Translations under genes and position numbers: made by a program
Shown: one piece after another, positions 5,425 to 56,671 of the stretch
Layout of the letters: each line of letters begins with the position of its first letter
How positions within the stretch are numbered: the stretch's first letter is position 1
Source: an uncultured delta proteobacterium
GTDB taxonomy: Bacteria > Myxococcota_A > Polyangia > Fen-1088
Length of the DNA stretch: 64,000 nt
NCBI GenBank assembly: GCA_963782545.1
Contig: CAWAKD010000006.1
Location: forward strand, 71,309 to 135,308
Direction of reading: 5' to 3'
Notes under the pieces: model-generated
Seen by the model: only the letters and a program-made list of their open reading frames with translations
Databases searched by the model: none
Told to the model about the DNA's origin: nothing

Positions 5425-5511
5425 GACTGCTGTCATGCCTGGCGGGGCAGCCGCGCTTCGAGCGTCCGTGGTAGGTGCGGGCGGAAGCGCTGTCGTGCCA
5501 TAATCGCGCCG

Positions 5512-6366: not shown

Positions 6367-6414
6367 CCTGGGGCCGCAAGCAACTTCGACCCTGCCATTG
6401 CCGAAACAGAAGTC

Positions 6415-18798: not shown

Positions 18799-18812
18799 GA
18801 CATTCCTCCTGC

Positions 18813-22356: not shown

Positions 22357-22377
22357 GGGGCCTCCTTCTTTTGCACA

Positions 22378-22429
22378 ATGTTTACGCTGTCAACATCAGG
22401 GAACTCCAAGATGTTGACGGTGTCAACAT
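22378..22429. promoter_or_regulatory. Two tandem 19-bp palindromic operators (putative TetR binding sites) in the divergent promoter region
   Basis: ATGTTTAC-GCT-GTCAACAT (22378..22396) and ATGTTGAC-GGT-GTCAACAT (22411..22429). Each has 8-bp inverted arms and a 3-bp spacer. Centres are 33 bp apart. They lie between the flavoprotein operon start (22356) and tetR (22449). Confidence 0.55.
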
Positions 22430-22448
22430 TAAAGTCGAGAATGTCGCC

Positions 22449-23081
22449 ATGGCCAAGAAGAAGCGGTATCACCACCCCGACCTGAAGCAGGCGCTTCTCG
22501 ACGGGGCGCTTAAGCTCATCCAGGAAGAAGGCTTGCGCGGCTTCTCGCTGCGCAAGCTGGCCATGCTGGCTGGAGTCAGCCACGCGGCGCCCTATCGCCA
22601 CTTTGCCAGCAAGGAGCAACTGCTGGTGAGCTTGATGCTGGAGGGGCACAAACGGCTGCGGTCCGCGTTGCTGGCCGCGGCTTCGAGCTGCAAGGGGACC
22701 GCGGTCGACAAGTACCTCGCGCTGGGCCGCGCCTACCTCGAATTCGCCAGAGAGAATCCGGAACACCTTCGGGTGATGTTCTCACGCGAGGCCATGCAGG
22801 CGGCCATGGGCTCGCAAGAGCCCGAAAAGTTCCACCAGCAGGACTACGATTCCTTCGGCGTCGTCGAAGAGATGGTTCGCGCGTGTCAGCGGGAAGGTGC
22901 GTTGCCCAAAAAGGGAAACGTCGGCGCCCTCGGAATCCTTGCCTGGGCCGAGGTGCACGGCCTGGCCCTGCTGTGCAACGAGGGGGTGGTCGCGACGATG
23001 GCGGAAATGCGTGGAACCAGCGAGAGCCAGGTCATGGGGATGATCTTCGCTTTCATGGAGGCGCGGCTCAAGCGTCGCTAG
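22449..23081 (+). CDS. TetR/AcrR family transcriptional regulator
   Basis: HTH motif LRGFSLRKLAMLAGVSHAAPYRHFASKEQLL. Start moved to MAKKKRYHH. Confidence 0.85.
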   Translation: MAKKKRYHHPDLKQALLDGALKLIQEEGLRGFSLRKLAMLAGVSHAAPYRHFASKEQLLVSLMLEGHKRLRSALLAAASSCKGTAVDKYLALGRAYLEFARENPEHLRVMFSREAMQAAMGSQEPEKFHQQDYDSFGVVEEMVRACQREGALPKKGNVGALGILAWAEVHGLALLCNEGVVATMAEMRGTSESQVMGMIFAFMEARLKRR

Positions 23082-24151
23082 GCGCGGTTCGGCGCGCGGC
23101 CCAGCTCGCGCAGCCAGCGGTAATGCGAGCCCAGGGCGGCGGTGGCGGTCGCGTGCGCGGCATATCGCACGCCGTGGGCCAGGCAGACGCGCTCGACGAT
23201 CTTCGACAAGGCCGGATAGTGCGTGTGGCAGACGCGTGGGAACAGGTGGTGTTCGATTTGGAAGTTCAACCCACCGACGAACCAGGTCAGCGCTCGGCTC
23301 TCGCGCGCGAAATCCACGGTGGCCTCGACTTGATGGGTTGCCCAGTCGCGTTCCATGACTTGTGCGGGAAGCGGCGGCTTGGCGAAGGTAGCCTCGCCCA
23401 GGCAATGGGCCAGCTGAAAAACCACGGCAAGCAACAGTCCCAGGATCACGTCGGTAAGCAGGAAGACGGCAAGCACGCCCCACAACGGATGAAAGAACAG
23501 GGGCAGCACCAGCGCCAAACCGAAAAAGAGGACCTTGCCGGACCAGAAGAGAAGTTGCTCGTTCCGAGCCGGCCGGGGCACCCGGGTGGAGGCGACCCCA
23601 GGCTTGATGATGCTGCGAAAGTCGTCCACCAGTTGCCACTTGATGGCCATGAGCCCGTAGAGAAGCCACATGTACAGATGCTGGAATCGGTGAAACCAGA
23701 AGCGTCGGTCATACGGGGTGAGGCGGCCAAGGGGACCGAGGTAGACGTCGTCATCGAAGCCGGCGATATTGGGGCACCCGTGGTGAGCAACGCCGTGCTT
23801 GTAGCGCCAGAAGTACGAGCTGCCGCCCAGCAAGTCGAGCGAGAAGGCCATGCCTCGATTGACAGAGGACGAGACGGCATAGGAGCCATGGCCGCCGTCG
23901 TGTTGCACGTTGAAGCCGATGCCAGCCATGGCGCAGGCCAGCGAGGCGGCAAGCAGTGCAAATTGCCATGGCTGTTTGGCGATGAACAGCAACAGCAGAT
24001 ACGACCCGACCAACCAGATGGCAAACACCGCGGTCTTTCCCCAAAGTGCATACGAACCTTTGCGAGAAAGGCCGCGACCCTGGAAGAATGCGGCGACCTT
24101 CGCATCGAGATCAGCCCGGAAAGCGGCGGGCGGCGCGTACTGAATGCCCAC
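23078..24151 (-). CDS. Membrane fatty-acid desaturase
   Basis: His boxes HDGGH, HGVAHH and QIEHHLFP. Four transmembrane segments. Confidence 0.85.
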   Translation of the reverse strand: MGIQYAPPAAFRADLDAKVAAFFQGRGLSRKGSYALWGKTAVFAIWLVGSYLLLLFIAKQPWQFALLAASLACAMAGIGFNVQHDGGHGSYAVSSSVNRGMAFSLDLLGGSSYFWRYKHGVAHHGCPNIAGFDDDVYLGPLGRLTPYDRRFWFHRFQHLYMWLLYGLMAIKWQLVDDFRSIIKPGVASTRVPRPARNEQLLFWSGKVLFFGLALVLPLFFHPLWGVLAVFLLTDVILGLLLAVVFQLAHCLGEATFAKPPLPAQVMERDWATHQVEATVDFARESRALTWFVGGLNFQIEHHLFPRVCHTHYPALSKIVERVCLAHGVRYAAHATATAALGSHYRWLRELGRAPNRA

Positions 24152-33370: not shown

Positions 33371-34291
33371 CTAGCGCGTGGCCTTGATGCCTTCTTTCCC
33401 TAGCAGGTCTTGCAGGGCACGGAGGTTCTGATCGCAGGCAGTGGTGAGCGCCGGCTTTGTCTGCAAGGACAACTCGAGCGAGCGAACGTTGCTGTTCCGC
33501 CGAGACAGCGCCACGATCTGGCGAGAGATGTCCTTGAACCGTTCGAGGGCAGACAACGCGACCGTGAGGGTTGGACGCGCATCTCTGGGAAGCAGCTTGG
33601 TCAGCGACTCGACGGCGCTCCTGGCCATCGTGTCGAGGTTGGCCATTTTCTGCTCCATGCTGGTCATGGCGGCGTCCTTGGATGCGGCGATATGGGGGCC
33701 GTACAGCACCTGAATCTCGCGAACCGCCAGGACCGCCTTGGCGATCGTCTCCTCGACGCCACAGCGGGCTTGGGGCGGAACTTTGCGTGCGACGGTGCCC
33801 AGAGCATCGCGGAACGAGTCTGCGGCCTCCTGCGCTGGACCAAAGGCCAAGCGCTGCGCCTTGAGATTGGTATTCTCGACGGCCAACGCGAGGATGGTAC
33901 GGTCGATCTCTCGGTACTTGGCGAGGTTCTCACCGAAGTCTTCGAGATCCTGGAGTTCGCGCGGGAAGCTCAGGCTCTGCAGCAGTGGCCTGAGCGCCGC
34001 GACCTCGCCGTCGACGATCTGCAGAGCCTTTTCGGCCTCGCGCGCAGACGCAATCGATGCCTCGTCTGTGTCCGCCATGACAGCACGATTGGACGCATCT
34101 ACTGCTTGGGTAAACTGAACCCTGAGGTCCGCTGCCAACCGTTTCGAATCGGCGAGCTGAGTGAAGTAGTCGCGTCGCCCTCGGCAGCCCAAGGCCAGGC
34201 CGAGGACACAAATCAAGACCGCTAGTTGCTGAAGTGTTTGGCGCGCCGGAGCGAGGCCTACGGAATAAAACACGGCGCAAGGGTACCACAT
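33371..34291 (-). CDS. Hypothetical membrane-anchored periplasmic helical protein (4HB-like)
   Basis: N-terminal TM/signal. All-alpha, coiled-coil-prone. Weak resemblance to a four-helix-bundle sensor module. Confidence 0.45.
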   Translation of the reverse strand: MWYPCAVFYSVGLAPARQTLQQLAVLICVLGLALGCRGRRDYFTQLADSKRLAADLRVQFTQAVDASNRAVMADTDEASIASAREAEKALQIVDGEVAALRPLLQSLSFPRELQDLEDFGENLAKYREIDRTILALAVENTNLKAQRLAFGPAQEAADSFRDALGTVARKVPPQARCGVEETIAKAVLAVREIQVLYGPHIAASKDAAMTSMEQKMANLDTMARSAVESLTKLLPRDARPTLTVALSALERFKDISRQIVALSRRNSNVRSLELSLQTKPALTTACDQNLRALQDLLGKEGIKATR

Positions 34292-35614: not shown

Positions 35615-35701
35615 CTGGCGGAAGCCAACGTGCGCCACGTGGCTGCTGCAGCCTGACTCTGCCGGGGAAGAGAGACCGGACAACCGTGGTACTATCGGGC
35701 C

Positions 35702-36124
35702 GTGACGATCGAGGAACTGACTTCACGGCTAGGCCGGGCGTTGCAGGCGCGGCCAGAGGTGCGTCTTGCGTTCCTGTTCGGGTCGTCAGTGTCAAGGGGG
35801 CTGGATTCTGCGAAGGATGTCGATGTCGCGAGCGCCTTTGCGGGTCCCCTTACTCTTCTCGAGCAAGGCACCATCGCGACCCAGCTCGAGCAGGTCGCGG
35901 AGCGCGAGATCGATCTCATCGACCTCGATGCGACCTCGACCTTGCTGCGCTGGGAGGTCGCACGCAGCGGCGTCGTCCTCTTCGCTAGAGACCACGCCGA
36001 GCTGGTGGAATTCCGCGCGCGTGTGCCTCTCGAGTATTTCGATCTCGAACCCTTCCTCGTTCGCGAAGCCGCCGGCCTACGTCTGGCTTTGGAGGAAACG
36101 AGATGGTCCAGCTCGAAGTCGTGA
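35702..36124 (+). CDS. MNT-type nucleotidyltransferase antitoxin (HepT/MNT type VII TA pair 1)
   Basis: GS..RG....SDVD motif (FLFGSSVSRGLDSAKDVDVAS). Overlaps the downstream DUF86 gene by 22 nt. Confidence 0.75.
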   Translation: MTIEELTSRLGRALQARPEVRLAFLFGSSVSRGLDSAKDVDVASAFAGPLTLLEQGTIATQLEQVAEREIDLIDLDATSTLLRWEVARSGVVLFARDHAELVEFRARVPLEYFDLEPFLVREAAGLRLALEETRWSSSKS

Positions 36125-36537
36125 GACAGAAAATCGCGCGCATGCGCGACACCGGGCAGTGGCTGAAGGCGTGCCTTCCCGCAGGGTCTGCCGACATGGT
36201 TTCCGACCGGAATGTCCGGGATCTCGTCTCGTTCCGCGCCCACCTGCTGGTCCAGGAGGCCATCGATATTTGTTCTCACCTCATCGCCGACCAGGGTTGG
36301 GGCCCCGTGCCGAGCCTGCGTGATCACTTCACGTTTCTGGCAGACAAGGGCGTGTTGCCGACCGGGTTGGCCGGCCAACTTGCAGCAGCCGTCAAGGTGC
36401 GCAACCTGGTCGGCCACGGCTACGTCGCGGTGGATCCACACAAGATGCACGAGGCGGCGGTGGAGATCGTTACCCTGGTCGATCCGTTTTGCGCGACCGT
36501 TTTATCGTTTGCCGAGGGCCACGCCCGCCGAGGCTGA
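36103..36537 (+). CDS. HepT-like (DUF86, HEPN) RNase toxin (pair 1)
   Basis: C-terminal R-x4-HGY motif (VRNLVGHGYVAVDPHKM), the HEPN Rx4-6H. Confidence 0.75.
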   Translation: MVQLEVVRQKIARMRDTGQWLKACLPAGSADMVSDRNVRDLVSFRAHLLVQEAIDICSHLIADQGWGPVPSLRDHFTFLADKGVLPTGLAGQLAAAVKVRNLVGHGYVAVDPHKMHEAAVEIVTLVDPFCATVLSFAEGHARRG

Positions 36538-40471: not shown

Positions 40472-40495
40472 CCACAGCGCCCCTCACCCTGTCCC

Positions 40496-41904
40496 TCATA
40501 GGTGCTAACCACTTTTTTGCTAGTGATCTCGCGAAGGTGTACGGGGAGGTATGGGGACGAAACTTCTGGAGTGCGAATGGCCGATGTTGGTCCGGGAGCT
40601 TCCTGCCGGGTGGAAGGAGAGCGCGTTCTTAACGGGCGCAATTGTCATGGAGGACGGGCCACTGGCCGACCCGGAGAAGCTGCTACGGTTGCTGTTGGGT
40701 AGGGCAGCATCTGACGGATCCCTACGCTCCGTGGTCGCGCACGCTCGGGCAACCGGGTTGTGCGACGTGAGCAACGTAGCCCTGCACAAGCGGGAGAAGC
40801 GATGTGCGGACTGGCTGGAATGGATCGCGGACGACATGCTGGCGGAAACCATGGCTGGGCTGCCGTCAAGTCCCTTGCGCATGCGTCTGGTAGACGCGAC
40901 TTGCGCGAGCCGGCCTGGCAGCACGATGGCCGATTTTCGCCTGCACGTGACTGTGGAGTTGCCTACCCGGCGATTCACCCGAGCGGAGTTGACCGACAAC
41001 CATGGCGGGGAGTCGTTCGAGCGAATGGCGGTTGAGCCAGGTGATCTCTTGGTGGGTGACCGCATCTATGGGACGGCGAATTCGATCGAGCACGTGACGG
41101 CGAGAGGTGGCTACGCCCTGGTGCGCATCAATGCTTCGTCGCTGCCAATGTGGAGTACCTCCGACGGGGCGCGGGTCGACCCACTGGTCGTGGCCAGAAG
41201 GCTCGCCCCTGGCGAGATGACGGAGATCCCCGTCGAGATCCGGCCGAAGTCTGGTCAGGCGATCGAGGGAAGATTTTGTATCTATGCCTTGCCCACCGAG
41301 CAGGCAGCCAAGGCCCAGAAGCGGACGCGCCGGACCAAGTTGAAGCGCGGCAAGCGACCGGGCAAGTGTTCCATCGAGAGCGCCAAGTACATCATGTTGT
41401 TTACGACCGTGCCCTGCAAGATGATGACGACCGCACAAGTGGTCGCGACCTATCGGCTGCGTTGGCAAGTCGAGCTTGCGTTCAAGACGCTCAAGACTGT
41501 GCTCAAGTTCGACGAGTTGCCCAATCGCCTGCCGGACACGGGCCGTACCTGGCTGCTCGCTAAGCTGATCTGCGCGCTTCTGCTGCAACGGTTGGCCGGC
41601 TGCCACGAGGCTATTCCCCCCTCGGACGTCGCAGCCGCTGCCTAGCCCATCATCCCGGCCAAGCCGGCTTTCTCCATTTCGCGCCATTGCGTTTCTGTCC
41701 TGTGCTCTGGCCGATGCCATTCTCGGTCGACTCACGCTGACGGCACGAGTTGCAGCCCTTGACCGCACATCTGAGTTTCGCGACGGCCGCCAGCAGTACC
41801 AAATCGACAAATTCGTCGTCCGACCTCGACACCGTCTTGCTCAACGCCTCGGCCTAGTCACGAAAGCTACCTCATGCAGGGCTCCGAGTGGTTAGCACCT
41901 ATGA
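40496..41904 (+). mobile_element. IS element copy A (1409 bp, DDE_Tnp_1 / IS4-like)
   Basis: 18-bp terminal IRs TCATAGGTGCTAACCACT (40496..40513 and 41887..41904). Flanked by a 9-bp direct repeat CCCTGTCCC (40487..40495 / 41905..41913). Confidence 0.8.
40551..41645 (+). CDS. IS4-like DDE transposase (364 aa)
   Basis: Y-(2)-R-(3)-E-(6)-K signature in YRLRWQVELAFKTLK. Identical to the copy at 42324..43418. Confidence 0.85.
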   Translation: MGTKLLECEWPMLVRELPAGWKESAFLTGAIVMEDGPLADPEKLLRLLLGRAASDGSLRSVVAHARATGLCDVSNVALHKREKRCADWLEWIADDMLAETMAGLPSSPLRMRLVDATCASRPGSTMADFRLHVTVELPTRRFTRAELTDNHGGESFERMAVEPGDLLVGDRIYGTANSIEHVTARGGYALVRINASSLPMWSTSDGARVDPLVVARRLAPGEMTEIPVEIRPKSGQAIEGRFCIYALPTEQAAKAQKRTRRTKLKRGKRPGKCSIESAKYIMLFTTVPCKMMTTAQVVATYRLRWQVELAFKTLKTVLKFDELPNRLPDTGRTWLLAKLICALLLQRLAGCHEAIPPSDVAAAA

Positions 41905-42064
41905 CCCTGTCCCTTACCCTGTCCCTCTCCCCGGCTGTCGCCGGGGCGAGGGGACCTGGCTGCTGGATCTCTGCGCAGGCAAGTGATCTCTCGACTCGTC
42001 CGAACCGCCCCCTCGCCCCGCGTAGCGCAGCGAAGCGGGGAGAGGGTTGGGGTCAGGGTTGGGG
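41905..42064. repeat. 160-bp remnant of an imperfect palindromic intergenic element between the two IS copies
   Basis: Arms ccctgtcccttaccctgtccctctcccc ... ggggagagggttggggtcagggttgggg are inverse-complementary with a few mismatches. The overlapping 67-aa ORFs on both strands are palindrome artefacts. Confidence 0.5.
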
Positions 42065-43473
42065 TCATAGGTGCTAACCACTCGGAGCCCTGCATGAGGT
42101 AGCTTTCGTGACTAGGCCGAGGCGTTGAGCAAGACGGTGTCGAGGTCGGACGACGAATTTGTCGATCTGGTACTGCTGGCGGCCGTCGCGAAACTCAGAT
42201 GTGCGGTCAAGGGCTGCAACTCGTGCCGTCAGCGTGAGTCGACCGAGAATGGCATCGGCCAGAGCACAGGACAGAAACGCAATGGCGCGAAATGGAGAAA
42301 GCCGGCTTGGCCGGGATGATGGGCTAGGCAGCGGCTGCGACGTCCGAGGGGGGAATAGCCTCGTGGCAGCCGGCCAACCGTTGCAGCAGAAGCGCGCAGA
42401 TCAGCTTAGCGAGCAGCCAGGTACGGCCCGTGTCCGGCAGGCGATTGGGCAACTCGTCGAACTTGAGCACAGTCTTGAGCGTCTTGAACGCAAGCTCGAC
42501 TTGCCAACGCAGCCGATAGGTCGCGACCACTTGTGCGGTCGTCATCATCTTGCAGGGCACGGTCGTAAACAACATGATGTACTTGGCGCTCTCGATGGAA
42601 CACTTGCCCGGTCGCTTGCCGCGCTTCAACTTGGTCCGGCGCGTCCGCTTCTGGGCCTTGGCTGCCTGCTCGGTGGGCAAGGCATAGATACAAAATCTTC
42701 CCTCGATCGCCTGACCAGACTTCGGCCGGATCTCGACGGGGATCTCCGTCATCTCGCCAGGGGCGAGCCTTCTGGCCACGACCAGTGGGTCGACCCGCGC
42801 CCCGTCGGAGGTACTCCACATTGGCAGCGACGAAGCATTGATGCGCACCAGGGCGTAGCCACCTCTCGCCGTCACGTGCTCGATCGAATTCGCCGTCCCA
42901 TAGATGCGGTCACCCACCAAGAGATCACCTGGCTCAACCGCCATTCGCTCGAACGACTCCCCGCCATGGTTGTCGGTCAACTCCGCTCGGGTGAATCGCC
43001 GGGTAGGCAACTCCACAGTCACGTGCAGGCGAAAATCGGCCATCGTGCTGCCAGGCCGGCTCGCGCAAGTCGCGTCTACCAGACGCATGCGCAAGGGACT
43101 TGACGGCAGCCCAGCCATGGTTTCCGCCAGCATGTCGTCCGCGATCCATTCCAGCCAGTCCGCACATCGCTTCTCCCGCTTGTGCAGGGCTACGTTGCTC
43201 ACGTCGCACAACCCGGTTGCCCGAGCGTGCGCGACCACGGAGCGTAGGGATCCGTCAGATGCTGCCCTACCCAACAGCAACCGTAGCAGCTTCTCCGGGT
43301 CGGCCAGTGGCCCGTCCTCCATGACAATTGCGCCCGTTAAGAACGCGCTCTCCTTCCACCCGGCAGGAAGCTCCCGGACCAACATCGGCCATTCGCACTC
43401 CAGAAGTTTCGTCCCCATACCTCCCCGTACACCTTCGCGAGATCACTAGCAAAAAAGTGGTTAGCACCTATGA
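42065..43473 (-). mobile_element. IS element copy B (1409 bp, inverted relative to copy A)
   Basis: The same 18-bp IRs (42065..42082 and 43456..43473). Own 9-bp direct repeat GGGTTGGGG (42056..42064 / 43474..43482). Confidence 0.8.
42324..43418 (-). CDS. IS4-like DDE transposase (364 aa), second copy
   Basis: Translation identical to 40551..41645. Confidence 0.85.
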   Translation of the reverse strand: MGTKLLECEWPMLVRELPAGWKESAFLTGAIVMEDGPLADPEKLLRLLLGRAASDGSLRSVVAHARATGLCDVSNVALHKREKRCADWLEWIADDMLAETMAGLPSSPLRMRLVDATCASRPGSTMADFRLHVTVELPTRRFTRAELTDNHGGESFERMAVEPGDLLVGDRIYGTANSIEHVTARGGYALVRINASSLPMWSTSDGARVDPLVVARRLAPGEMTEIPVEIRPKSGQAIEGRFCIYALPTEQAAKAQKRTRRTKLKRGKRPGKCSIESAKYIMLFTTVPCKMMTTAQVVATYRLRWQVELAFKTLKTVLKFDELPNRLPDTGRTWLLAKLICALLLQRLAGCHEAIPPSDVAAAA

Positions 43474-43644
43474 GGGTTGGGGTGAGGGGCGATCCTGTGG
43501 ACCTCTCCAAGCCGCCCTCTTACCGCTGGAAGCCGCCGGTGTAGGTCGCACACTTGGCTTTCTGGGTAAGGACGAGCCCCGATGGGGAGAGGCTTGAAGT
43601 GGCCAGGCGTCGCTCTCAGCGCGCTCTGTGGTTAAACTGCGCTG

Positions 43645-46985: not shown

Positions 46986-47222
46986 CGTCGGTCGACCTGG
47001 CGGCTGGCGTTGACGAATTGTGGTTGGTCTGGCCAAGGGCGTGGCAAAATGCGAGGCAATCGGGGTGCGGAGGCGGGTGGGATTTGTGGCTTTCCATGCC
47101 TCAAGTCCGGAAGAAAAGCCGACGAAAACTGTTGATAGGACGGGGCGATTGCGCACCTCGACACACTCGCGGCGGCTGGTACGCAGCAGCCCTACACCAG
47201 TTCCCCGACATGGGAGGTCTCA

Positions 47223-47611
47223 GTGAACGTTGTCAAGACTCGTAAGGTTCTCGTGGTCGAGGATTCGCGTCTGATTCACAAGATGTACGAAGTCATGCTT
47301 CGGCCCTGCATGCTGATCGCGGCGCACGATGGGCGGGAAGGCCTGGCTCGTCTGAGGAGAATCCGGACGTGGACGTCATCATCCTGGACATCAACATGCC
47401 ACACATGACCGGGTTGGAGTTTCTCGGCCAGATCAAGGCCCAGCCCGAGTTCGCCGCCATTCCGGTCATCATCGTTTCCACCGAGGGCAAGGAGGAGGAT
47501 GTCGCACGCGGGCTCCAGGCGGGCGCGTTGGCCTACCTCAAGAAGCCGTTCCAGCGCGAGGATTTGCTCAAGATCATCGGGCGCCTCACTGCCAAGCAAC
47601 CTTCCCCGTGA
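47223..47611 (+). pseudogene. CheY-like single-domain response regulator, frameshifted near 47355 (1 nt missing)
   Basis: Frame 1 reads MNVVKTRKVLVVEDSRLIHKMYEVML...GREGLARL. Frame -1 reads (N)PDVDVIILDINMPHMTGLEFLG...KKPFQREDLL. The phospho-acceptor Asp, T and K regions are in the second frame (AGGAGAAT where AGGGAGAAT is expected). Confidence 0.7.
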
Positions 47612-47692
47612 AAGTTGGTGATGTGATGGTCGACGGTCCTCGGAAATCCATCTACTCGGCGGAGGAAAGCGCGAGATCCTCTCGCCACCCTG

Positions 47693-48379
47693 ATGCGGGC
47701 ACGCCAGCTCATCCACGACGCCCAGGCCGCCATCGAGGAGGCCAGCAAATCGGTCGTGCAGCAGCGCACGGCCTCGGCCGAGATTCCCGAGCGCGAGCTG
47801 CGGCTGGCCAAGGCCGAAGACGAACGCGAGGAGCTGGCCGCGCGACTCGTCGAGGTCGAGCACCAGGTCGGGCGACTCATGACCTTGTACGTGGCCACCT
47901 ACCAGCTGCACGCCACGCTCGACCCCGCCGACGTGCAATCGACCATCGCGGAGATCGCCGTGAATCTGCTCGGTGCCGAGCATTTCGCCTTGCTTCTGCG
48001 CAACGATGACGACAGCGCCTTGGAGATTCGCCTGCAGGAAGGCTCGATTGACGCGGCCTGGTCGGGGGCCGCGACCTACACCGGGGGGGATCCGCTCATC
48101 GATGCCTCTCTTCTCGACGGCATGTTGCGCTTCGGCCCGGCCGACGATTCTCCGGTGCTGGTCGCCGTACCGCTGCGCGTGCAGGACGTTACGGAGGGGG
48201 CGCTGGTGATCACGAAGTTGTTCGAGCACAAGGGCAAGCTGGACGAGGACGATCGCGACTTGCTCGATCTGCTTGGGGCGCACGCCGCCTCGGCGCTCTT
48301 CGCCTCACGGGTGTACTCGCGGGCCGCGCGCAAGGTGCGAACTCTGGAAGGACTGATCAAGCTGGTCAGGAAGGGGTGA
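47693..48379 (+). CDS. Coiled-coil + GAF-like domain protein
   Basis: N-terminal heptad-rich helix. The C-terminal approximately 150 aa has GAF-like topology (LLGAEHFALLLRNDD...LVAVPLRVQDVTEGALVITKLF). Confidence 0.55.
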   Translation: MRARQLIHDAQAAIEEASKSVVQQRTASAEIPERELRLAKAEDEREELAARLVEVEHQVGRLMTLYVATYQLHATLDPADVQSTIAEIAVNLLGAEHFALLLRNDDDSALEIRLQEGSIDAAWSGAATYTGGDPLIDASLLDGMLRFGPADDSPVLVAVPLRVQDVTEGALVITKLFEHKGKLDEDDRDLLDLLGAHAASALFASRVYSRAARKVRTLEGLIKLVRKG

Positions 48380-48410
48380 CCCGCGGGCGCGTCGCCCAAG
48401 CGAGGACGAT

Positions 48411-50063
48411 ATGAGTTTCCAAGGGATGATCGAAGACGTCGCGGTTGCCGACGTGATGCAACTGATTCGTCTCGGCGGTCATTCCGGCACGCTGACCGTG
48501 AGCAACGGACACGAGGAGAGTTTCATCGGCTTCGAGCGTGGCCGGATCGTGAGCGCATGGAATCCACGCTCGCGCAGGGTGGGGGAGCTTCTGGTCGCCG
48601 CGGGCGCGGTCGATGAGGTCTCCCTGGAGCGCGCGCTAGAGGCTCAGAGCACCGAGCGGCCCCGCAGAAGCATCGGGCATTACCTGGTCCGCATGGGCGT
48701 CACGACGCCGGAAACCATCCGCGACGTGATGGCGGGCGAGATCGAGCGCGTGGTGGGCGAATTGTTCGCTTGGAAATCGGGAACCTTCGAATTCGCCATC
48801 GACGATCTCACGCCGATGATCGAGGTCACCCGCTTTACCGGCGCGCCCAAGGTCGACCTCGACACCCAGACGGTTCTCATGGATGTCTTGCGCCGGATCT
48901 CGGATGCCGAGGCCGGGGCCGCGCCTGGGGGCGACGCGGTCGGGTCCGGTGGCGGTGAGGGGGAAGGCGCGGAGAGCCGCCAGCACACCCACAGCAGCGA
49001 ATTCGAACCGCCCGCGCCGGAAGATGTGAACCAGACGGACGCCGTCGCAGTCTCGTCCCATAGCGCATCGCAAGCGCAAGCTGGCGGGCACCTCGGACGC
49101 GAGCCCACGCCCATGCCCGAGGTGGGGGAGCACCTGCGCTTCCAGATCGTGTCTCCCGATACCGAACTCCTGAACCGCCTCAACCAGCTCATGTCCCCTG
49201 CGGGCGATCACGTCTCCGCGGTCGCTTTGCGCGACGCGGGCGCATCGCTGCTCGGCGAACCCCCGCCCATCGTGGTGGTCGATTTGCGCCACCAGGTCCA
49301 TGTCGCTTCCACGCTGTCGGCGCTGTGCCGGTCTCGGCCGCGCGCCGCGATCATCGCGATGTTCGAGGGCCGGGCGCCCCTGCGCGAAATGTACAAGGCA
49401 GGGGTGCTTTCGGTCACCTCGACGGCGCCGGAGACCGTCGTTGCCTGCATGCAATCCGTCGCCAGGCAGCGCAAGTACATGGCGAACGAGCACGCCATCA
49501 CGGAGGGCATCCGCACCAGTTTCGCGCGCCTGCGCCGGATCATCGCCGACCTGCGCTCGGGCCTGCTCGGCACCTCGGTATCGTCGAATCTGATGGCGGC
49601 CGTGGCCGAATCCCTCGACCGCGGGGTGCTGTTCGTGCCCCATCTCGATCGCTTGGTCGCGCTAGGGGCGTTCGGCAATGCCGGCTGGGGCGCGCCGCTG
49701 GCCAGGACCACGCAGGGGCTCATCATGGCGATCGGGGACAGCGGGGTATTCAAGGACTGCGTGAACGACAGTCGGGCACGCCGCTTGCGTTACGAGGAGG
49801 CCAACTTGCCGCAGGCCTTCGCCGAGGCGGTGGATTGTCCGCGTACCGGCGAGATCGCGGTCTTGCCGGTGCCCGGCAGCGAACGTGTGATCGCGGCCAT
49901 CTACCTCGACAACGGCGCACGGGATCGGGCCATCGGCGATATCGAGATCTTCGAGCTGGCGGCCTTCCAACTCGGCTTGGCGCTGGAAAACGAGTTCCTG
50001 CGCCGGGCGCATCCCAAGCAGGACGTGACGTCGTTCGTCTTCGGCGCGCGTGACGCCGGGTAG
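48411..50063 (+). CDS. DUF4388 / T2SSE_N-like + GAF-like domain protein
   Basis: N-terminus DVAVADVMQLIRLGGHSGTLTV (DUF4388), then a GspE_N-like segment. C-terminal GAF-like domain (...IAAIYLDNGARDRAIGDIEIFELAAFQLGLALEN). Confidence 0.6.
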   Translation: MSFQGMIEDVAVADVMQLIRLGGHSGTLTVSNGHEESFIGFERGRIVSAWNPRSRRVGELLVAAGAVDEVSLERALEAQSTERPRRSIGHYLVRMGVTTPETIRDVMAGEIERVVGELFAWKSGTFEFAIDDLTPMIEVTRFTGAPKVDLDTQTVLMDVLRRISDAEAGAAPGGDAVGSGGGEGEGAESRQHTHSSEFEPPAPEDVNQTDAVAVSSHSASQAQAGGHLGREPTPMPEVGEHLRFQIVSPDTELLNRLNQLMSPAGDHVSAVALRDAGASLLGEPPPIVVVDLRHQVHVASTLSALCRSRPRAAIIAMFEGRAPLREMYKAGVLSVTSTAPETVVACMQSVARQRKYMANEHAITEGIRTSFARLRRIIADLRSGLLGTSVSSNLMAAVAESLDRGVLFVPHLDRLVALGAFGNAGWGAPLARTTQGLIMAIGDSGVFKDCVNDSRARRLRYEEANLPQAFAEAVDCPRTGEIAVLPVPGSERVIAAIYLDNGARDRAIGDIEIFELAAFQLGLALENEFLRRAHPKQDVTSFVFGARDAG

Positions 50064-50077
50064 CGAGGAGGCAAGGC

Positions 50078-51799
50078 GTGGACGAACTTTTCGCATCCCT
50101 GGCGAGAGACTTCGTCGACGAGACAGCACCCATTGCGCAAGAAGTGGGCGGCCTCCTGCTCAAGCTGGAGGAGGTTTTCGCGGCGGGGGACGATGCCAAG
50201 CCGCTGCTGCGCGCGATTCGCAGCGGACTGCACACCATCAAAGGCAACAGCGCGATGATGGGCCTTTCGCCCATCGAGCGAGTGGCGCACGCGCTCGAGG
50301 ATGTCTGCGCGCAGGTCGCGACGGGCTCGACAGCCGGGTATGTCCCGCGGGTCCAGCTGCTTGTCGAGGGCTGCGATCTCCTCGGGGTTCTGATTCCCTC
50401 GGTGCTTGCCGGCGACATGGACGCGAGGCCTGCGGACGCGTTCGTGAAGCGTTCGCTCGAAGCGGACGAGGTGGTCGGGCCGCCGGGGGAGATTTCGGCC
50501 CCCGCGGAAGACCCGGCACGTGGTGATTCGGCGGGGGGCGAGCCAATCCTCGCGGGCGACGCCAGGGACGGGCGGGGAGCGGCGCGCATCGCCGACCGGG
50601 ACGTCGACGAATTGCTGGAGCTGGCCGGGGAAGCCATCGTCGGGCAGACCGAGCTCGCGCGTGTGCATGGCCGTCTGGCGCGCGGCCAGTTCGAGGCTGG
50701 CGACATCGCGGTCATGGATCGGATTCTGACCGACCTCGGGCGGACGACGCGCGAGATGCGCCATAAGCTGCTGCGGGTGCGCCTTGCGCCCATCGCCACG
50801 CTGTTTCGTCGCTTCGCCCGTTTCTTGCGCGATCTGGCCCGCGAACGGGGGCAGGCCGTCGAGCTGTGTATCGAAGGGGGGGAGACGGCCGTGGATCGGG
50901 CTATCATCAGCCGTCTTCACGAACCCCTGGTCCACATCGTGCGCAATGCCTTGGCCCACGGTATCGAAACCGCCGACGAGCGCGTGGCGCGGGGCAAGCC
51001 GGCCAAGGCCCAGATTCTGCTGAGCGCACGCATGCGCGAGGGGCGGGTGAATGTCTGCATCGCCGACGACGGTCGCGGCCTCGACCTGCGCGCCATCGCG
51101 GCCAAGGCCAACAGCCAGGGGGTGGATACCAGCAGTCTTTCCGAGCGCGACCTCCAGCGCTTGATCTTCAAGGCGGGATTCTCGACAGCTCCGCAGGTGT
51201 CGAACCTGGCCGGCCGAGGGGTTGGCTTGGACGTGGTGGCGTCCGTGGTGCAAGGCCTGGGCGGCAGCATCGACGTCCGCTCGGCGAGTGGACGAGGAAC
51301 GGTGTTCGTGCTCGACCTGCCGGTGACGGTTTCCCTGCAAAAGGCCCTCATCTTCGGCGTGGACAGCGAGACCTTCGCCGTTCCCGCGGGCTTCATCCTC
51401 GATACCATGGAGAGCCGCGAGAAGGACATGCAGGCGATCAACCGCGTGCTGCTTGTTTCCTGGCGCGGAGATTTCGTCCGTGCCGTGGATGCCGGGCGTC
51501 TGCTTGGCTGCCAGGGGTTGGCGCAGGCCTGGGCGCGTCCCTACGCCATTGTCTTGCAGGCGGGTAACAAGCGCGGCGCTCTCCTCGTGGATTGGCTCTC
51601 GGACGTACAGGAGATCGTGGTCAAACCGCTCGACGAAACCCTGGCCAAATGTCGCATGATCGCCGGTGCGACGGTTCTTGCACATGGCCGCGTGGTGCCC
51701 ATTCTCGACTGTGTCGAGGTGGTCCGTCGCGCCAGTGTTGCCCTCTTGTCCGAACCCCCCAAGGAAGCCAAGGTGGAGGCCAGCTACGATGTCTTCTGA
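50078..51799 (+). CDS. cheA: Chemotaxis histidine kinase CheA
   Basis: HPt domain (HTIKGNSAMMG), dimerisation, HATPase (HIVRNALAHGIE ; GRGVGLDVV) and a C-terminal CheW-like domain. GTG start with RBS GAGGAGG. Confidence 0.9.
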   Translation: MDELFASLARDFVDETAPIAQEVGGLLLKLEEVFAAGDDAKPLLRAIRSGLHTIKGNSAMMGLSPIERVAHALEDVCAQVATGSTAGYVPRVQLLVEGCDLLGVLIPSVLAGDMDARPADAFVKRSLEADEVVGPPGEISAPAEDPARGDSAGGEPILAGDARDGRGAARIADRDVDELLELAGEAIVGQTELARVHGRLARGQFEAGDIAVMDRILTDLGRTTREMRHKLLRVRLAPIATLFRRFARFLRDLARERGQAVELCIEGGETAVDRAIISRLHEPLVHIVRNALAHGIETADERVARGKPAKAQILLSARMREGRVNVCIADDGRGLDLRAIAAKANSQGVDTSSLSERDLQRLIFKAGFSTAPQVSNLAGRGVGLDVVASVVQGLGGSIDVRSASGRGTVFVLDLPVTVSLQKALIFGVDSETFAVPAGFILDTMESREKDMQAINRVLLVSWRGDFVRAVDAGRLLGCQGLAQAWARPYAIVLQAGNKRGALLVDWLSDVQEIVVKPLDETLAKCRMIAGATVLAHGRVVPILDCVEVVRRASVALLSEPPKEAKVEASYDVF

Positions 51800-52358
51800 G
51801 CCCGGTCTGCCTCCCGAACCCACGGGCGGCCATGCCGAGGGCGCAAAGCCCCTACTGGCCTTCGCGGACGCGTTGCTTTCCGCGAGTCCGCGCGAACCGA
51901 GTCGCGCCGCCGGCCCGGTACAACAGTACGTGACCTTCTTCTTGCGAGAAGACGAGATCGGCATCCCCATCTTGCAGTGTCGCGAGATCGTTCGCGCCTT
52001 GGCGATCACGCGCGTGCCGGAAGCCCCGGCCCACGTGCGCGGGGTCGTGAATCTGCGCGGCCGCATCCTTCCCGCGGTGGATACCCGCAAGTGCCTCGGC
52101 TACGAGTCCGCCCCTGCCACCGCCCGGTCGCGCCTGCTCGTCGTGGAGGTCGCCGGCCGCGGCTTCGCGCTTCTCGTGGACCGGGTCGCGCGTATTCTCA
52201 AGTTGGCCGCCGAGGACATCGCGGCGGCCCCCGAAAACGCGAAGGTACCGGCCACCCTCGGAGTGGCGCGTGATGGAGATGCCACGATTCATCTTACCGA
52301 TGCCGAACGAATTCTGAGCGCAGGATCCCCGGTGGCGGCTTCAACCCCCAAGGAGTGA
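51789..52358 (+). CDS. cheW: Chemotaxis coupling protein CheW
   Basis: CheW fold (QYVTFFLREDEIGIPILQCREIV...VRGVVNLRGRILPAVD). Its start overlaps the cheA stop. Confidence 0.85.
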   Translation: MSSEPGLPPEPTGGHAEGAKPLLAFADALLSASPREPSRAAGPVQQYVTFFLREDEIGIPILQCREIVRALAITRVPEAPAHVRGVVNLRGRILPAVDTRKCLGYESAPATARSRLLVVEVAGRGFALLVDRVARILKLAAEDIAAAPENAKVPATLGVARDGDATIHLTDAERILSAGSPVAASTPKE

Positions 52359-52364
52359 AGAGGC

Positions 52365-54734
52365 ATGAGCACACACGAAAGCAAGGCTTCCTCGACTTCC
52401 AGGTCTCCGCGCCCAACCGGAATTGCAGACGCCGCGCGCGAGCAACGGGGCCACTGGTGGCTGGGGCGCATCGAAGGCGCGCCCCTCCTGCGCCACCTGT
52501 CCTTGTGGCAGAAGCTGCTCATCATCGTCGTCGTCCTCCTTCTCCCCACGGTTCTGCTGCTGCGCGATTTCGTCAGCAAGAGCAACGAGGAGATCGTGCG
52601 TATGCGGCGGGAGCTGTGCGTGGAGAGTTATGCGCAGCAGCTCAAGCGAATCCTGAGTCAACAGATAGCCATGAATATCAGGTCGCTGTTTTCCGGTCCG
52701 GACGATCTGGTGAGGGTCTCGAAAGACGTGACCACGGCGGCTTTGGAGGAGCTCGGCACCTTGAATAGGACGGGTTGCGGAGCGAATCCGGACCTGGCCA
52801 GGGTGCGCATGCCGGAAACCTTGGCCGAATTGGGCGCCCTGGAGGCGCAGGCCGGGCAGGATGCGTCCCGAAGGGAGGAATTGCAACGACGCATGCGCGA
52901 GGCAATCGCCACCTGGTTCCGTCAGATCGCCATGGTGGCCAACGAAGCCCAGATCCTGGATCCCGGCGCTGTCCATCTCGACGACACCACCTTGCGGCGA
53001 TTGCCGGAGGCGGCCTGGCGCCTCGAGCGGGTCGTGGAACTGGGAGCCGAGTGGTCGGACGGACAGGAGGTTCCGATCGCGGTTCGCGCCGATCTCATCA
53101 GCGCCATCGATGGATTCGCCGACGATCTTACCGATATCGAACGCGATCTGCTGGCCGCGGTACGCGCAGGTGGTCCCTCGGCGGCGGCACAATCGCTCGC
53201 CAGCGTGAGCATTCCCTTGCAGGAGTGTGTCTCGGCTGGACGCAAGGCCATTGCGGCTGGGAGGAAGCTCGTGGCTGACGCGCGAAGCGCCAAGGACTCC
53301 GGCAGCGACGCGACGGTATCGTCTCTGCGGGGCCTGGCCTCATCGGCGCTGGAGTCGCTGTTCGCGACCTTCGATGCCACCCTCGACGCGCGTCGCGCGG
53401 ACCTCCAGGAAAAGGTAACCGGACACGAGGAGCAACGAAGCCGGACCATCGCGCTCGTGCTGGTGGCCGTGCTTGCGGCGGTGGGACTGGTGTCGGTGAT
53501 CGTACGCAGTATCACGGTGCCGATCAATTTGGCGGTCGAGTCCGCCAACAGTTTGGCCGAGCAGGACTTCGCCATCGAAATCGGTGAAACCCGATCCACC
53601 GACGAGGTCGGCCAGCTCTTGGTGTCGATGCGCAAGATGGCGGCCAACCTACGCGCGACCATCCGCTCGATCCTGGATGCCTCGCGCATCGTGGCCAGCA
53701 CATCGGAAAGAATATCGATTTCAGGCACTCAACTCGGCAAGGGCACCGAAACGCAGTCCACCGCGACCGCCGCGACCTCGGCGAGCATGGGGCGTATCGC
53801 GGAGCAGATTCAGCAGCTTTCGCAGACGGCGACATCGCTTTCCGCCAGCGTGGAGGAAACCACCACCGCCTTCCAGCGCATGTATGAGACCCTCGAACGA
53901 ACCGCGCTGCACGGTCAAACCTTGCTCGCATCGTCCCAGGAAGCCACCATGCACCTGGCAGGACTGACGAGCAACATCACGCAGGTGACGGCGCAGGCTC
54001 GCACGGCCAATGAGATGTCCAAGGCTACTCTCGGGTCTGTCAAGTCGGGCAGCGAGTCGCTGCAGCGGTCCATCGGGGCCATCGGTGACCGAGCTCAGGA
54101 AATCAGCAAGATCCTTCGTCTCATCGAGGAGATCGCCGACCAGACCAACCTGCTGGCGCTGAACGCCGCCATCGAGGCAGCCCGTGCCGGCGAGGCCGGG
54201 CGCGGCTTCGCCGTGGTGGCCGACGAAGTCAAGCGCTTGGCCGAGCGCAGCGCCCAGTCAACGCGCGACATCGGCGCGATCATCGAAAGCGTGCAGAAGG
54301 ACGTGGGCGCTGCAGTGACCTTGACCGATGAGGTACTTGTGGGAATGATGGCGTCCATCGACAAGACATCCACCATCATCGCGGCCAGCGCGCTCGCCAC
54401 GGAAAGTCAGAGCGAGGCCGCTCGGCAGACCCTCAGGGTCGCGGAGAACATGTCCGGGCTGGCCCAACAGATAGCCATGGCCGCGCGTGAAAACGCGGGC
54501 AGCGCCGCGGAGATCGTCACGGCCTCACGGCGCATGAGTGCCTTGACCGGCTCGATGCTGGACGCGACCATGGAACAAAAGCGGGGTGGGGAAACCGTGG
54601 TCAAGTCGACCGAATCGATCTCCGAAGTCGCCCGCCAGAATCTGCAGGTGGTGGAGCAGCTCAACGTGGCGGCCAAGGATCTGTCGGCGGAGGCAGAATC
54701 CCTCCGCCAGCGCATGGAGTTGTTTACGGTCTGA
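52365..54734 (+). CDS. Methyl-accepting chemotaxis protein (2 TM, HAMP, MA domain)
   Basis: Highly conserved signalling hairpin [35 protein letters not shown] long periplasmic/helical N-terminal region. Confidence 0.9.
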
Positions 54735-56671
54735 TGGAAACCCCCGCACCTGCGCAATCGCTGGACCAGGCGCTGCAGGCGGCGCTGGGGGAGGGCGGCC
54801 GTTCGGCTTTCGGTCCGGACTTCGCGGAAGGCACGGGCAGCGTGGAACAGCCGCGCGGATCGCGCGGGAGGAGTGAGGACATTTTGGGCCGCACGGCCCT
54901 GCTCGACGCCCTGGCGAGTGGGGGTAGCCAAGGCATATCGGCGCTCGTGAGTGCCGTGCGCAGCGGCGATGACGACGTGGCCATGTACGCGGCCACCGCG
55001 CTCGGCGATGCGCGCGATCCGGCGGCGGTTCCACACTTGATACGGTTGGTCCGGCACCCGGATCTCAACGTGGCTCAGGCCGCGATCGATGCCTTGGGCA
55101 AGTTGCGTGCGCAATCGGCCGCGGCTTCCATCGAGGCCATGCTGGAGGCCGACCCATGGTTGCGTTTTGCGGCGGCTCATGCCCTGGGCGAGATCGGGCA
55201 CCCTGGCAGCGTGTCTGCGCTCATGCGCGCGGCCGGAGATCCCACCATCTCGGAATTGGCCATCGAGGCCCTGGGAAAGATCGCCACCGTTTCGGCCGCG
55301 ACGGCGCTGGCCGACTTGCTGGCCCGCCGGGTGGACGGCGAAAGTTTCGATGAATGCCTACTTGCCCTGGGGACTGCGCTTTCACGCATGGTCGACCTTT
55401 CGGATCTCCAAGACTGCTCGGCCTGGCGCCGGCTTGGCTCGACCGAGGCGAGCGCCGTGCACGCACGCCTGGTGGCCGTCCTGGTTTGTCGCGACGTCGC
55501 GACCGAGGGCGCGCTCGACCGGCACCTTCTCGGGGAAGCTGCTATCGCGGTGATTCGCGCACTGGCGATTCCCGCGCTTTATCCGGCCCTCATCGACGGC
55601 GCGTGGGATGTCACCTTGGCGGAGACGTTGCTCGATGCAGTGCTGTTTGCGGCGCCGGCCACGCATGCCTGCGTCCTGGCGGGCCTCGGCCACGCCGATG
55701 CCGATGTGCGGGCCTTCTGCTGCGAAGCCGCGGGCGCCATGGGCATCGAGGAAGCCATCGGCCCCTGCGAGCGCCTGCTCGATTCCAAGGAGGCGTGGGT
55801 GCGCGTGGCCGCCGTACGGGCGTTGGCCGACTTGAAGGCCGACCGGGCCCTGCCCGCCATGCTCCGTTGCCTCGCGGATCCCGTTGAACCGGTGCGCACG
55901 GCCGCCGTGCGATCGCTCGGAACCATGGATGCGAATCTGGTCACGGGGGCACTGCTCTCGAATGCCGAACTGGCGAGCACCCACACGGCGTTGGCCCTCG
56001 AAGTAATGCACATCGCGCCCTGCGTGGCTCAGCGGGAGTACGTTCTCCGTGCGCTCACCGATGCCCGTGACGACGCGCGGCGCGCGGCGGTCGCGGTCAT
56101 GGGTGCGAAGGAAGACGCAGAGGTCATCGACGTTCTGGAGCCGATGCTCCGGGATCCGTCCAGCGCGGTTCGCGCCGAGGTCGTCCAGGCGTTCGGGCGG
56201 CGTCGCTCACCAAGGGCACAGCGCCTGCTGCTCGACCAGTTCGCGTGCGACGTCGAAATTCGCGAGCACATCCTGCGCGCCCTTGGCCATGTCGGGGACG
56301 GATGGGCCGCTCGTCGCCTGATGGGTCTCTTTCCCGAACAGGAGCCCGCGATTCGCTTGGCCATGGTCGACGCCCTCGGCGCCATCGCCGCGCCCGTGGC
56401 CGAGCCCTTCCTGGCCCAGTTGCTAGCCGATCCCCATCCCGAGATTCGGGGCCGGGCGGCTGTGGCCATCGGCCACTATGCGAGCGATGGCGCCGTGACC
56501 CGTCTGGCTCACGCGGCCCGGGATGAGAGCGCGCGCGTGCGTCTGGCGGCGCTGGAATCACTGTCCGCCTTTGCCAGCCGACCGGCTGCGGTCGAGGCCT
56601 TCGAGCGTATGTGCCTGGATCCGGTTCCCGCCATCGCGGCACTGGCCCGTCGCTGTTTGCGCAAAAGCTGA
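54734..56671 (+). CDS. HEAT-repeat (PBS-lyase-like) protein
   Basis: More than 12 repeats of ...VR..AA.ALG.IGDP.AV..L (e.g. DPWLRFAAAHALGEIGHPGSVSAL). The ATG overlaps the MCP stop (TGATGG). Confidence 0.8.
   Translation: METPAPAQSLDQALQAALGEGGRSAFGPDFAEGTGSVEQPRGSRGRSEDILGRTALLDALASGGSQGISALVSAVRSGDDDVAMYAATALGDARDPAAVPHLIRLVRHPDLNVAQAAIDALGKLRAQSAAASIEAMLEADPWLRFAAAHALGEIGHPGSVSALMRAAGDPTISELAIEALGKIATVSAATALADLLARRVDGESFDECLLALGTALSRMVDLSDLQDCSAWRRLGSTEASAVHARLVAVLVCRDVATEGALDRHLLGEAAIAVIRALAIPALYPALIDGAWDVTLAETLLDAVLFAAPATHACVLAGLGHADADVRAFCCEAAGAMGIEEAIGPCERLLDSKEAWVRVAAVRALADLKADRALPAMLRCLADPVEPVRTAAVRSLGTMDANLVTGALLSNAELASTHTALALEVMHIAPCVAQREYVLRALTDARDDARRAAVAVMGAKEDAEVIDVLEPMLRDPSSAVRAEVVQAFGRRRSPRAQRLLLDQFACDVEIREHILRALGHVGDGWAARRLMGLFPEQEPAIRLAMVDALGAIAAPVAEPFLAQLLADPHPEIRGRAAVAIGHYASDGAVTRLAHAARDESARVRLAALESLSAFASRPAAVEAFERMCLDPVPAIAALARRCLRKS

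Follow-up and report, generated by a model that had tools for sequence, protein, structure and literature searches.

The window analysed here, a 64-kb stretch of DNA (G+C about 65 %) from an uncultured soil myxobacterium of the class Polyangia, carries a genuine seven-gene chemotaxis-like signalling operon on its + strand at positions 47223-56671. The genes encode, in order, a CheY response regulator, a coiled-coil GAF protein (ccGAF), a DUF4388/PATAN protein, CheA, CheW, a methyl-accepting chemotaxis protein (MCP) and a HEAT-repeat protein. With moderate confidence, the region is taken to represent a distinct family of non-flagellar chemosensory operons from uncultured Polyangia, of which it would be a streamlined, vertically inherited member with a PATAN-type output. 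Judged from the sequences, the family is characterised by a compact CheA lacking the P2 domain, a CheW, an MCP with a long signalling hairpin, a single-domain CheY and a HEAT-repeat auxiliary, joined in many members by GAF and PATAN proteins. The genes of the window and their Pfam assignments are as follows.

cheY, 47223-47612, + strand: single-domain response regulator (Response_reg E 1e-25 once frame-corrected)
ccGAF, 47693-48379, + strand: 228 aa, GAF domain at residues 76-202 (GAF_3 E 4e-9)
DUF4388/PATAN adaptor gene, 48411-50063, + strand: 550 aa (DUF4388, PF14332, E 4e-25)
cheA, 50078-51799, + strand: 573 aa, with Hpt, dimerisation, HATPase_c and CheW domains
cheW, 51789-52358, + strand: 189 aa
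mcp, 52365-54734, + strand: 789 aa, HAMP and MCPsignal
HEAT-repeat gene (HEAT2), 54734-56671, + strand: 645 aa (HEAT_2 E 4e-62, HEAT_PBS E 3e-13)

This gene order and content agree with the original prediction, which had been made from the sequence alone, and are borne out by Pfam hits on all seven genes. The predicted tight spacing was confirmed by inspection of the junctions: cheA and cheW overlap by 11 nt (cheW ATG at 51789, cheA stop at 51797-99), mcp and the HEAT gene overlap in TGATG at 54732-36, and the remaining intergenic gaps are 80, 31, 14 and 6 nt, which fits the single transcription unit that had been suggested. The Che core is present by Pfam as an MCP signalling domain, CheW, a CheA with P1, P3, P4 and P5, and a CheY-type receiver whose frame is broken by 1 nt, so the description of the locus as a non-flagellar chemosensory module with non-canonical accessories is supported. 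CheA carries the phospho-His motif H-T-I-K-G, its N, G1, F and G2 boxes are intact, and it lacks both a P2 and a receiver domain. Both ends of the cluster fall within the window, with a Suv3-like helicase and a FAD oxidoreductase gene upstream (and a KARI gene beyond the helicase) and convergent DoxX, PfkB and spermine-synthase-like genes downstream.

Loci encoding the PATAN adaptor were compared across 9 genome loci, from metagenome-assembled genomes (MAGs) of Myxococcales/Polyangia, and 66 metagenome loci. The cluster is conserved in about 30 related Polyangia loci. A neighbour-joining tree of the PATAN protein places two clades as sisters, clade I with a PATAN protein at least 66 % identical to that of the window, and clade II with 58-62 % identity. 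The complete loci of clade I (21 including the window) share the arrangement cheY-ccGAF-PATAN-cheA-cheW-mcp-HEAT2, with one exception, L064, which lacks HEAT2. In that locus the mcp is followed directly by DoxX, and the PATAN gene aligns in two pieces, suggesting a frameshift or insertion. Clade II loci are flanked upstream by KARI and downstream by DoxX, PfkB and spermine synthase genes, and these shared flanks place them at the same chromosomal locus as the window. Their arrangements are listed here, where Y is cheY, G ccGAF, P the PATAN gene, A cheA, W cheW, M mcp, H HEAT, R cheR and B cheB.

Y-G-P-A-W-HEAT1-CheR-CheB-M-HEAT2: L054 (complete); L043 and L070 (partial)
ending in R-B-M: L042
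ending in B-M: L046 and L055
ending in B-M-T2SSF: L037 and L049
ending in M-T2SSF: L011 and L012
P-T2SSF alone: nine loci, L039-41, L045, L059, L061, L075, L079 and L080
Y-G-P-Ser/Thr kinase: L067, L081 and L082

The T2SSF product is a platform protein of the GspF/PilC family (GspF E 4e-47; PilC, PDB 3jc8, E 1.5e-35), and its gene adjoins the PATAN gene or mcp in 13 sister loci. The PATAN protein is the most persistent element of the locus, and CheY and ccGAF are usually retained too; these two share one fate, being either both present or both absent, and accompany PATAN even where a kinase replaces CheA, CheW and MCP. The ccGAF protein has a helical, coiled-coil-like N-terminus ahead of its GAF domain, and its gene constantly lies between cheY and the PATAN gene. 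The peat-soil Polyangia form a natural deletion series that runs from the full system through loci without CheR and CheB and loci without a Che core to PATAN and a PilC-like gene only, which suggests that the GAF and PATAN module may persist after its kinase has gone. Downstream of the PilC-like gene in two of the most reduced loci (L079 7074-9347 and L080 6218-8467) is a gene for a protein of about 750 aa with nine disintegrin-like repeats and a CarboxypepD_reg/Ig-like domain, possibly a substrate that is secreted or displayed on the surface. In the reduced locus L081 the space beside the PATAN gene is occupied by MNT/HepT, HicAB and PIN genes, similar to an overlapping MNT (Polbeta nucleotidyltransferase)/HepT toxin-antitoxin pair at 35657-36537 of the window.

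More distant relatives were sought by searching the window CheA against 1.84 billion cluster representatives. The nearest relatives are compact CheA proteins, 540-590 aa in length, whose end-to-end alignments show 57-39 % identity, and hits past this compact family are generic CheAs at 30-37 %. Three clusters with a CheA just 39 % identical to that of the window also carry the GAF and PATAN pair, which is therefore older than the window's clade. The distant clusters are arranged as follows.

L083: GAF-PATAN-CheY-CheA-CheW-HEAT-CheR-CheB
L086: order identical to that of L083, GAF-PATAN-CheY-CheA-CheW-HEAT-CheR-CheB
L088: GAF-PATAN-CheY-CheA-CheW-x-MCP-HEAT
L085: CheW-HEAT-CheR-CheB, with neither GAF nor PATAN
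L084 and L089: no HEAT and no GAF/PATAN

On these comparisons the association of GAF, PATAN, CheY, CheA and CheW is judged to be old, and the HEAT-repeat protein an old, recurrent component of such clusters. The PATAN proteins of the distant clusters are 179, 338 and 505 aa long, with the PATAN domain as their constant part, and the window ccGAF is 41 % identical to the GAF gene product of L086. The two HEAT proteins differ in their relationships: compared with the HEAT proteins of L086 and L085, HEAT1 of L054 shows 45-46 % full-length identity, and the window HEAT2 just 30-32 %. HEAT1 also always adjoins CheR-CheB and is lost together with them, and this constant neighbourhood and the identity values point to HEAT1 as the ancestral core HEAT protein and to HEAT2 as a divergent paralog. 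The HEAT2 repeats are PBS-lyase/NblB/CpcE-like, the best NCBIfam matches being NblB/CpcE-like and below cut-offs. HEAT proteins are unmentioned in the Halobacterium taxis-network paper. By comparison of all these loci, the ancestral locus would have been cheY-GAF-PATAN-cheA-cheW-HEAT1-cheR-cheB-mcp-HEAT2, from which the HEAT1-cheR-cheB segment would have been deleted once in the window's clade. Purifying selection has since maintained the remaining seven genes, and one MCP methylation site has decayed.

The cheY gene of the window is interrupted by a 1-nt frameshift, which had been noticed near 47355 in the original prediction and is confirmed and placed here at 47354/55. Frame 1 codes for residues 1-44 ('VNVV...GLARL') and frame 3 for the remainder ('EENPDVDVIILD...'). 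In a DNA alignment the lesion is a deletion within a variable codon, the window reading 'CTGA-GGAGAAT' where seven relatives have 'CTGGCCGAGAAC' or similar. Programmed frameshifting at 47354 was rejected by eye, as the slippery heptamer is absent. The receiver residues are complete, comprising the E13/D14 acidic pocket, the phospho-acceptor Asp in 'IILDINMP', the S/T position and the Lys in 'KKPF'. A real but minor chance is given to the explanation that the frameshift is a true mutation and the cluster a decaying remnant in the present genome, the pathway being lost as in the sister lineages. The deletion is present in the sequence, the lineage does show a reduction series down to PATAN and a PilC-like gene alone, and a crude search found no further frameshift in the window, which suggests that the assembly is not generally error-ridden. 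Set against this explanation, cheY is in frame in all 45 orthologs recovered, its ratio of nonsynonymous to synonymous substitution rates (dN/dS) relative to the closest relatives is 0.04 (dS about 0.75), lower than for any other gene of the cluster, and the private substitutions of the frame-corrected window CheY number only 2 and fall at variable columns; a long-standing loss of cheY is on these sequence grounds excluded. The other six genes are intact, with dN/dS of 0.10-0.25. Artefacts do occur in data of this kind: a related MAG, L003 (name prefix MFD), has several frameshifts in its helicase and FAD-oxidoreductase genes at 5251-8597, which implies that indel errors are found in assemblies of this lineage. 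The frameshift is specific to the present sequence and is probably either an assembly or sequencing error or a very recent lesion. That the pathway is without its receiver, as the original prediction held for the case of a real frameshift, is not established, and the apparent loss should be treated with caution as most likely no biological feature of the lineage. Overlapping open reading frame (ORF) pairs elsewhere in the window that a GC3-based gene caller flagged as frameshifts were rejected as such, being separate genes (two FMN reductases and the MNT/HepT pair).

The 550-aa PATAN protein is modelled by AlphaFold (AF2; mean pLDDT 70) as a PATAN/DUF4388 domain at residues 1-168, a disordered variable linker at 171-239, a five-stranded alpha/beta receiver-like domain at 243-357, a long helix at 360-382 and a GAF-like domain at 392-533. 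It thus resembles a PatA-type regulator, with PATAN, a degenerate receiver and GAF. Pfam finds DUF4388 alone in this protein, with residues 4-165 aligned to profile positions 1-120 and an insertion between. The best Foldseek match in the PDB is the REC-GAF dual sensor kinase 6oap (E 2e-8), followed by GAF structures 3oov, 4g3v and 5w10 and by CheY 1tmy; one ortholog matches the GAF family PF13185. All 291 homologs are metagenomic. Pfam analysis of 47693-50063 thus returned the expected GAF and DUF4388 domains, and the receiver-like domain had been missed in the original prediction. The domains of the 'DUF4388/T2SSE_N-GAF' protein described there are real, but the T2SSE_N-like part is an insertion inside PATAN. 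The GAF domains of ccGAF and of the 550-aa protein show no similarity to each other by BLASTP, and their derivation as paralogs was rejected. Two segments of the 550-aa protein bear on its function.

pseudo-receiver domain, 49137-49481, + strand: residues 243-357, recognised from the ortholog alignment, secondary structure and fold matches
MshEN/T2SSE_N-like alpha-clip, 48564-48743, + strand: residues 52-111, inserted in PATAN, recognised by PDB profile search and NCBIfam

In the pseudo-receiver only D291, the Asp at the phospho-acceptor site, is the same in all orthologs; S248-P249 stand in for the acidic pair, the T87 position is occupied by M317/F318, and the K109 position lacks a Lys. The alpha-clip, searched against the PDB as a profile of 27 orthologs, matches the MshEN/GspE-N domains of PilF (6f8l, E 1.5e-6), MshE (5htl, E 1.3e-3) and PilB. 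The MshEN receptor motif for cyclic di-GMP (c-di-GMP) consists of two tandem 24-mers, [RKPN]hGxxhhxx[GAS]hhxxxxhxxxhxx[QNKRYWST], about 5 residues apart (PMC5013675). Motif I of the clip, RVGELLVAAGAVDEVSLERALEAQ, fits the relaxed c-di-GMP-binding 24-mer at every position, and the distant homolog in L086 keeps both motifs nearly perfect. The clip differs from MshEN in being embedded in PATAN and not at the N-terminus of an ATPase.

The persistence of PATAN, usually with CheY and GAF, favours a PatA-like output over a Cpc7-like one, and HEAT2, being replaceable, is less likely as the sole output. The conserved output candidate is thus probably the GAF/PATAN pair, and by analogy its target is probably type IV pilus-like. 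PatA-type (PATAN-REC) regulators have evolved within chemosensory systems lacking CheR and CheB, and in Synechocystis the link between a PATAN regulator and a PilC-type platform is a physical interaction (bioRxiv 10.1101/2021.06.11.447907; PMC11181946); the proposed step from PATAN to the pilus platform is taken from this Synechocystis work. M. xanthus PATAN proteins co-occur with the pilus-polarity factor SgmX (PMC11580455). The cluster of the window shares with the cyanobacterial Tax1/Pix, Hmp and Ptx systems (Tfp class) an operon with a PATAN regulator, a separate single-domain CheY, CheA, CheW and MCP, the lack of CheR/CheB, a PATAN alpha-clip resembling the N-terminus of GspE/PilB, and the link to a PilC-type platform, which is genomic here, in sister loci, where that of Synechocystis is physical. 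It differs from them in that the PATAN-fused receiver is degenerate, with only the Asp of the D57 position, and is followed by GAF; in that a second, coiled-coil GAF protein is always adjacent; in its compact CheA, which is no CheA-REC hybrid; in its MCP, which is a receptor with two transmembrane segments and HAMP and not a photoreceptor; in its ancestral form with CheR, CheB and HEAT; and in its myxobacterial host.

In function, the Dif system of M. xanthus belongs with type IV pili and exopolysaccharide and not with flagella; its accessories are DifB and the CheC-like DifG, and DifA is a short 44H receptor. Dif is not known to include HEAT, GAF or PATAN genes. The window cluster and Dif are alike as chemosensory clusters without CheR/CheB, none being listed for Dif (PMC3945109, Table 3). 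No description of a ccGAF and PATAN-pseudoreceiver-GAF pair in che operons was found in the searchable literature. As a tentative proposal only, this pair could be a previously unrecognised portable output module of chemosensory arrays that receives CheY~P, and possibly c-di-GMP by way of the MshEN-like clip, and couples both signals to an orphan PilC-like platform or polarity apparatus.

The original prediction had placed the cluster near the Che7 pathway of M. xanthus, and part of this comparison stands. Both have a single-domain CheY, a receiver-less CheA and a PBS-lyase-type HEAT protein in the cluster, as well as a non-motility (alternative cellular function) character, and the ancestral form of the locus had CheR and CheB beside HEAT. 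The likeness does not extend to the HEAT protein being invariant, since HEAT2 is dispensable or replaceable in relatives, or to the receptor: Mcp7 is cytoplasmic, with no transmembrane segments and no HAMP (PMC3945109, Table 1), and the window MCP is transmembrane with HAMP and has a hairpin that seems longer than the 40H class reported for Mcp7. Also unlike Che7, the window has no counterparts of CheR7/CheB7 (which the sister loci L054, L043 and L042 do have), and its cheY and cheA are separated by GAF and PATAN genes. Among the nearest CheA representatives, no M. xanthus CheA paralogs were recognised by length or name, and the named hits were from Bacillota and Nitratiruptor. It is considered rather unlikely that the operon is a Che7-type pathway in which CheY~P acts directly on the HEAT protein, as CheY7 does on Cpc7, with a developmental or physiological output that GAF and PATAN only modulate. 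Consistent with such a pathway are the HEAT_PBS-type repeats, the apparent translational coupling of mcp and HEAT, the recurrence of HEAT in such clusters even where GAF and PATAN are missing (L085), an ancestral gene content (CheY, receiver-less CheA, CheW, MCP, CheR, CheB and HEAT) resembling that of Che7 (PMC3945109 tables), and the CheY7-Cpc7 interaction, which is cited in PMC11514114. The related loci argue the other way, because a PilC-like gene or a kinase replaces HEAT2 in sister loci, HEAT2 is absent from one clade I locus, and CheY and ccGAF persist with PATAN where CheA, CheW, MCP and HEAT are gone; the association of HEAT1 with CheR-CheB is better explained by a role in adaptation or in the array than by an output. 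From the sequence comparison, the cluster appears to combine Che7-like traits with traits like those of the cyanobacterial Tax/Pix systems.

The MCP has two hydrophobic transmembrane segments at residues 41-73 and 358-391 followed by HAMP and the signalling hairpin, and the 284-aa periplasmic domain has no match to any Pfam family at E up to 1. The hairpin has its tip at E610 and arms of 179 aa each, about 25.5 heptads, consistent with roughly a 48-52H class. MCPs of clade II have two methylation-consensus sites, SAATEETSSS and SASVE[EQ]TTTA, of which the window has kept one.

methylation site 1, degenerate, 53757-53786, + strand: ancestral 'SAATEETSSS', with Glu-Glu changed to Ala-Ala in the window
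methylation-consensus site 2, retained, 53841-53870, + strand: recognised in the MCP alignment

The Glu-Glu pair of site 1 is lost in 28/28 clade I MCPs, with AA, GA, DA, ST or EA in its place; this heterogeneity is the pattern expected under relaxed constraint after loss of CheR/CheB. The pair is kept in the clade II loci that carry CheR/CheB, and the sole clade II MCP without it (L058) is also without CheR and CheB. The EQ form of site 2 is found in four CheB-carrying loci and was seen only where CheB is present. This form of a methylation site requires deamidation by CheB. In the 64-kb window, tblastn with E. coli CheR and CheB queries found nothing (best E 0.98), and no CheC or CheD was found among the approximately 45 window ORFs scanned with Pfam, which bears out the reported absence of all four enzymes. 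No CheR or CheB is encoded in any of the 21 complete clade I loci, and the operon of the window does not run on beyond the window at either side. Since the sister loci carry CheR-CheB within the cluster and every clade I MCP has lost the site 1 pair, the lack of CheR/CheB is judged to be real, and methylation-based adaptation, on this sequence evidence, to be genuinely lost and derived in the window's clade. It is quite improbable that adaptation is retained through CheR and CheB encoded elsewhere and servicing the MCP in trans: site 2 is conserved in clade I, and several che clusters and orphan CheR/CheB genes are frequent in myxobacteria (PMC3945109), but the universal and heterogeneous loss of the site 1 pair, the confinement of the EQ form to CheB-carrying loci and the lack of both genes in the window speak against it.

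The favoured reading, of a streamlined operon with a PATAN-type output, suggests the following course of signalling. The transmembrane MCP would sense a periplasmic cue via its unclassified 284-aa domain and control CheA through CheW, signalling without methylation-based adaptation; CheA would phosphorylate CheY, and CheY~P would target the co-inherited pair of ccGAF and PATAN-pseudoreceiver-GAF proteins. Through its PATAN domain the latter would then engage a type IV pilus- or type II secretion system-like platform (PilC/PilB-type) or the polarity machinery, as cyanobacterial PatA-type regulators do. A second-messenger or metabolite input, for example c-di-GMP, may enter by way of the MshEN-like clip and the two GAF domains. 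HEAT2 would serve as a scaffold associated with the array or with CheY, and may bind CheY~P as Cpc7 does.

Several observations weigh against this reading. The order CheY, GAF/PATAN, pilus platform is drawn from co-inheritance and the cyanobacterial analogy, and the window and its clade have no PilC-like gene at the locus, the 64-kb window holding no pilus genes. The pseudo-receiver lacks 4/5 catalytic residues, so that phosphorylation of PATAN-REC by CheA as in cyanobacteria is not simply transferable. The match of the clip to NCBIfam NF053729 (MshE-related c-di-GMP motif), with E 4.8e-9 and 35.9 bits, is below the cut-off of 38, and its motif II is degenerate, deviating at 3 positions, with a spacer of 7 residues, not 5. 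Methylation site 2 is retained, and CheR/CheB could exist elsewhere in the genome. The neighbour-joining trees are rough, and a single loss of HEAT1-CheR-CheB is parsimonious, not proven. If the cheY frameshift is real, the present genome is without the sole canonical receiver of the pathway.

The non-coding stretch of roughly 200 nt upstream of cheY (46986-47222, + strand) averages 81 % column identity over 6 clade I loci, which matches conservation at the coding level, and its conserved blocks include GGCCAAGAGCGTGGCAAAATG and GTTCCATGCCTCAAGTCC. It may be a candidate promoter, leader or operator. A GGGAGG Shine-Dalgarno sequence lies 5-6 nt ahead of the GTG start of cheY. The region upstream of cheY gave no match in Rfam and no covariation support for an RNA structure in the clade I alignment, and promoter and terminator scans gave scores not above those of shuffled sequence. 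A sigma-54-like TGGCA...TTGC upstream of cheY was rejected by eye, its spacing being wrong by 2 nt.

Further upstream, between KARI and the helicase, is an inverted repeat of 1,456 nt (40478-41933 / 42036-43491) whose arms are 99 % complementary and separated by 102 nt. Each arm has a 364-aa DDE_Tnp_1 transposase ORF (40551-41645, + strand; 42324-43418, - strand), so the repeat consists of two inverted insertion sequence copies just upstream of the che locus, or may alternatively be a fold-back assembly artefact. Elsewhere in the window, a 306-aa ORF at 33371-34291 (- strand) has a partial match to 4HB_MCP_1 (E 9e-7) and no MCP signalling domain. A TetR regulator gene adjoins a fatty-acid desaturase gene at 22371-24151, 23 kb from the che cluster, and a link at such a distance is unlikely; a desaturase gene is also part of M. 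xanthus che7. The two FMN-reductase/flavodoxin-like paralogs at 21138-22389 (- strand) are tandem and overlapping, and each matches its Pfam profile from position 1. Two large neighbouring ORFs of 1024 and 669 aa at 15724-20822 (- strand) have no Pfam family at E up to 1e-4.

Many chemosensory pathways serve alternative cellular functions, and few of their outputs are known; for the present family, comparative genomics nominates the ccGAF and PATAN adaptor proteins as an output module. The link between PATAN and the pilus platform has so far been shown experimentally in cyanobacteria only, and the loci described here extend it genomically to myxobacteria. The stepwise loss of CheR, CheB, HEAT and the Che core, with matching decay of the methylation site, amounts to a natural experiment, and the resulting deletion series lets one ask what adaptation-free arrays do and which of their parts are separable.

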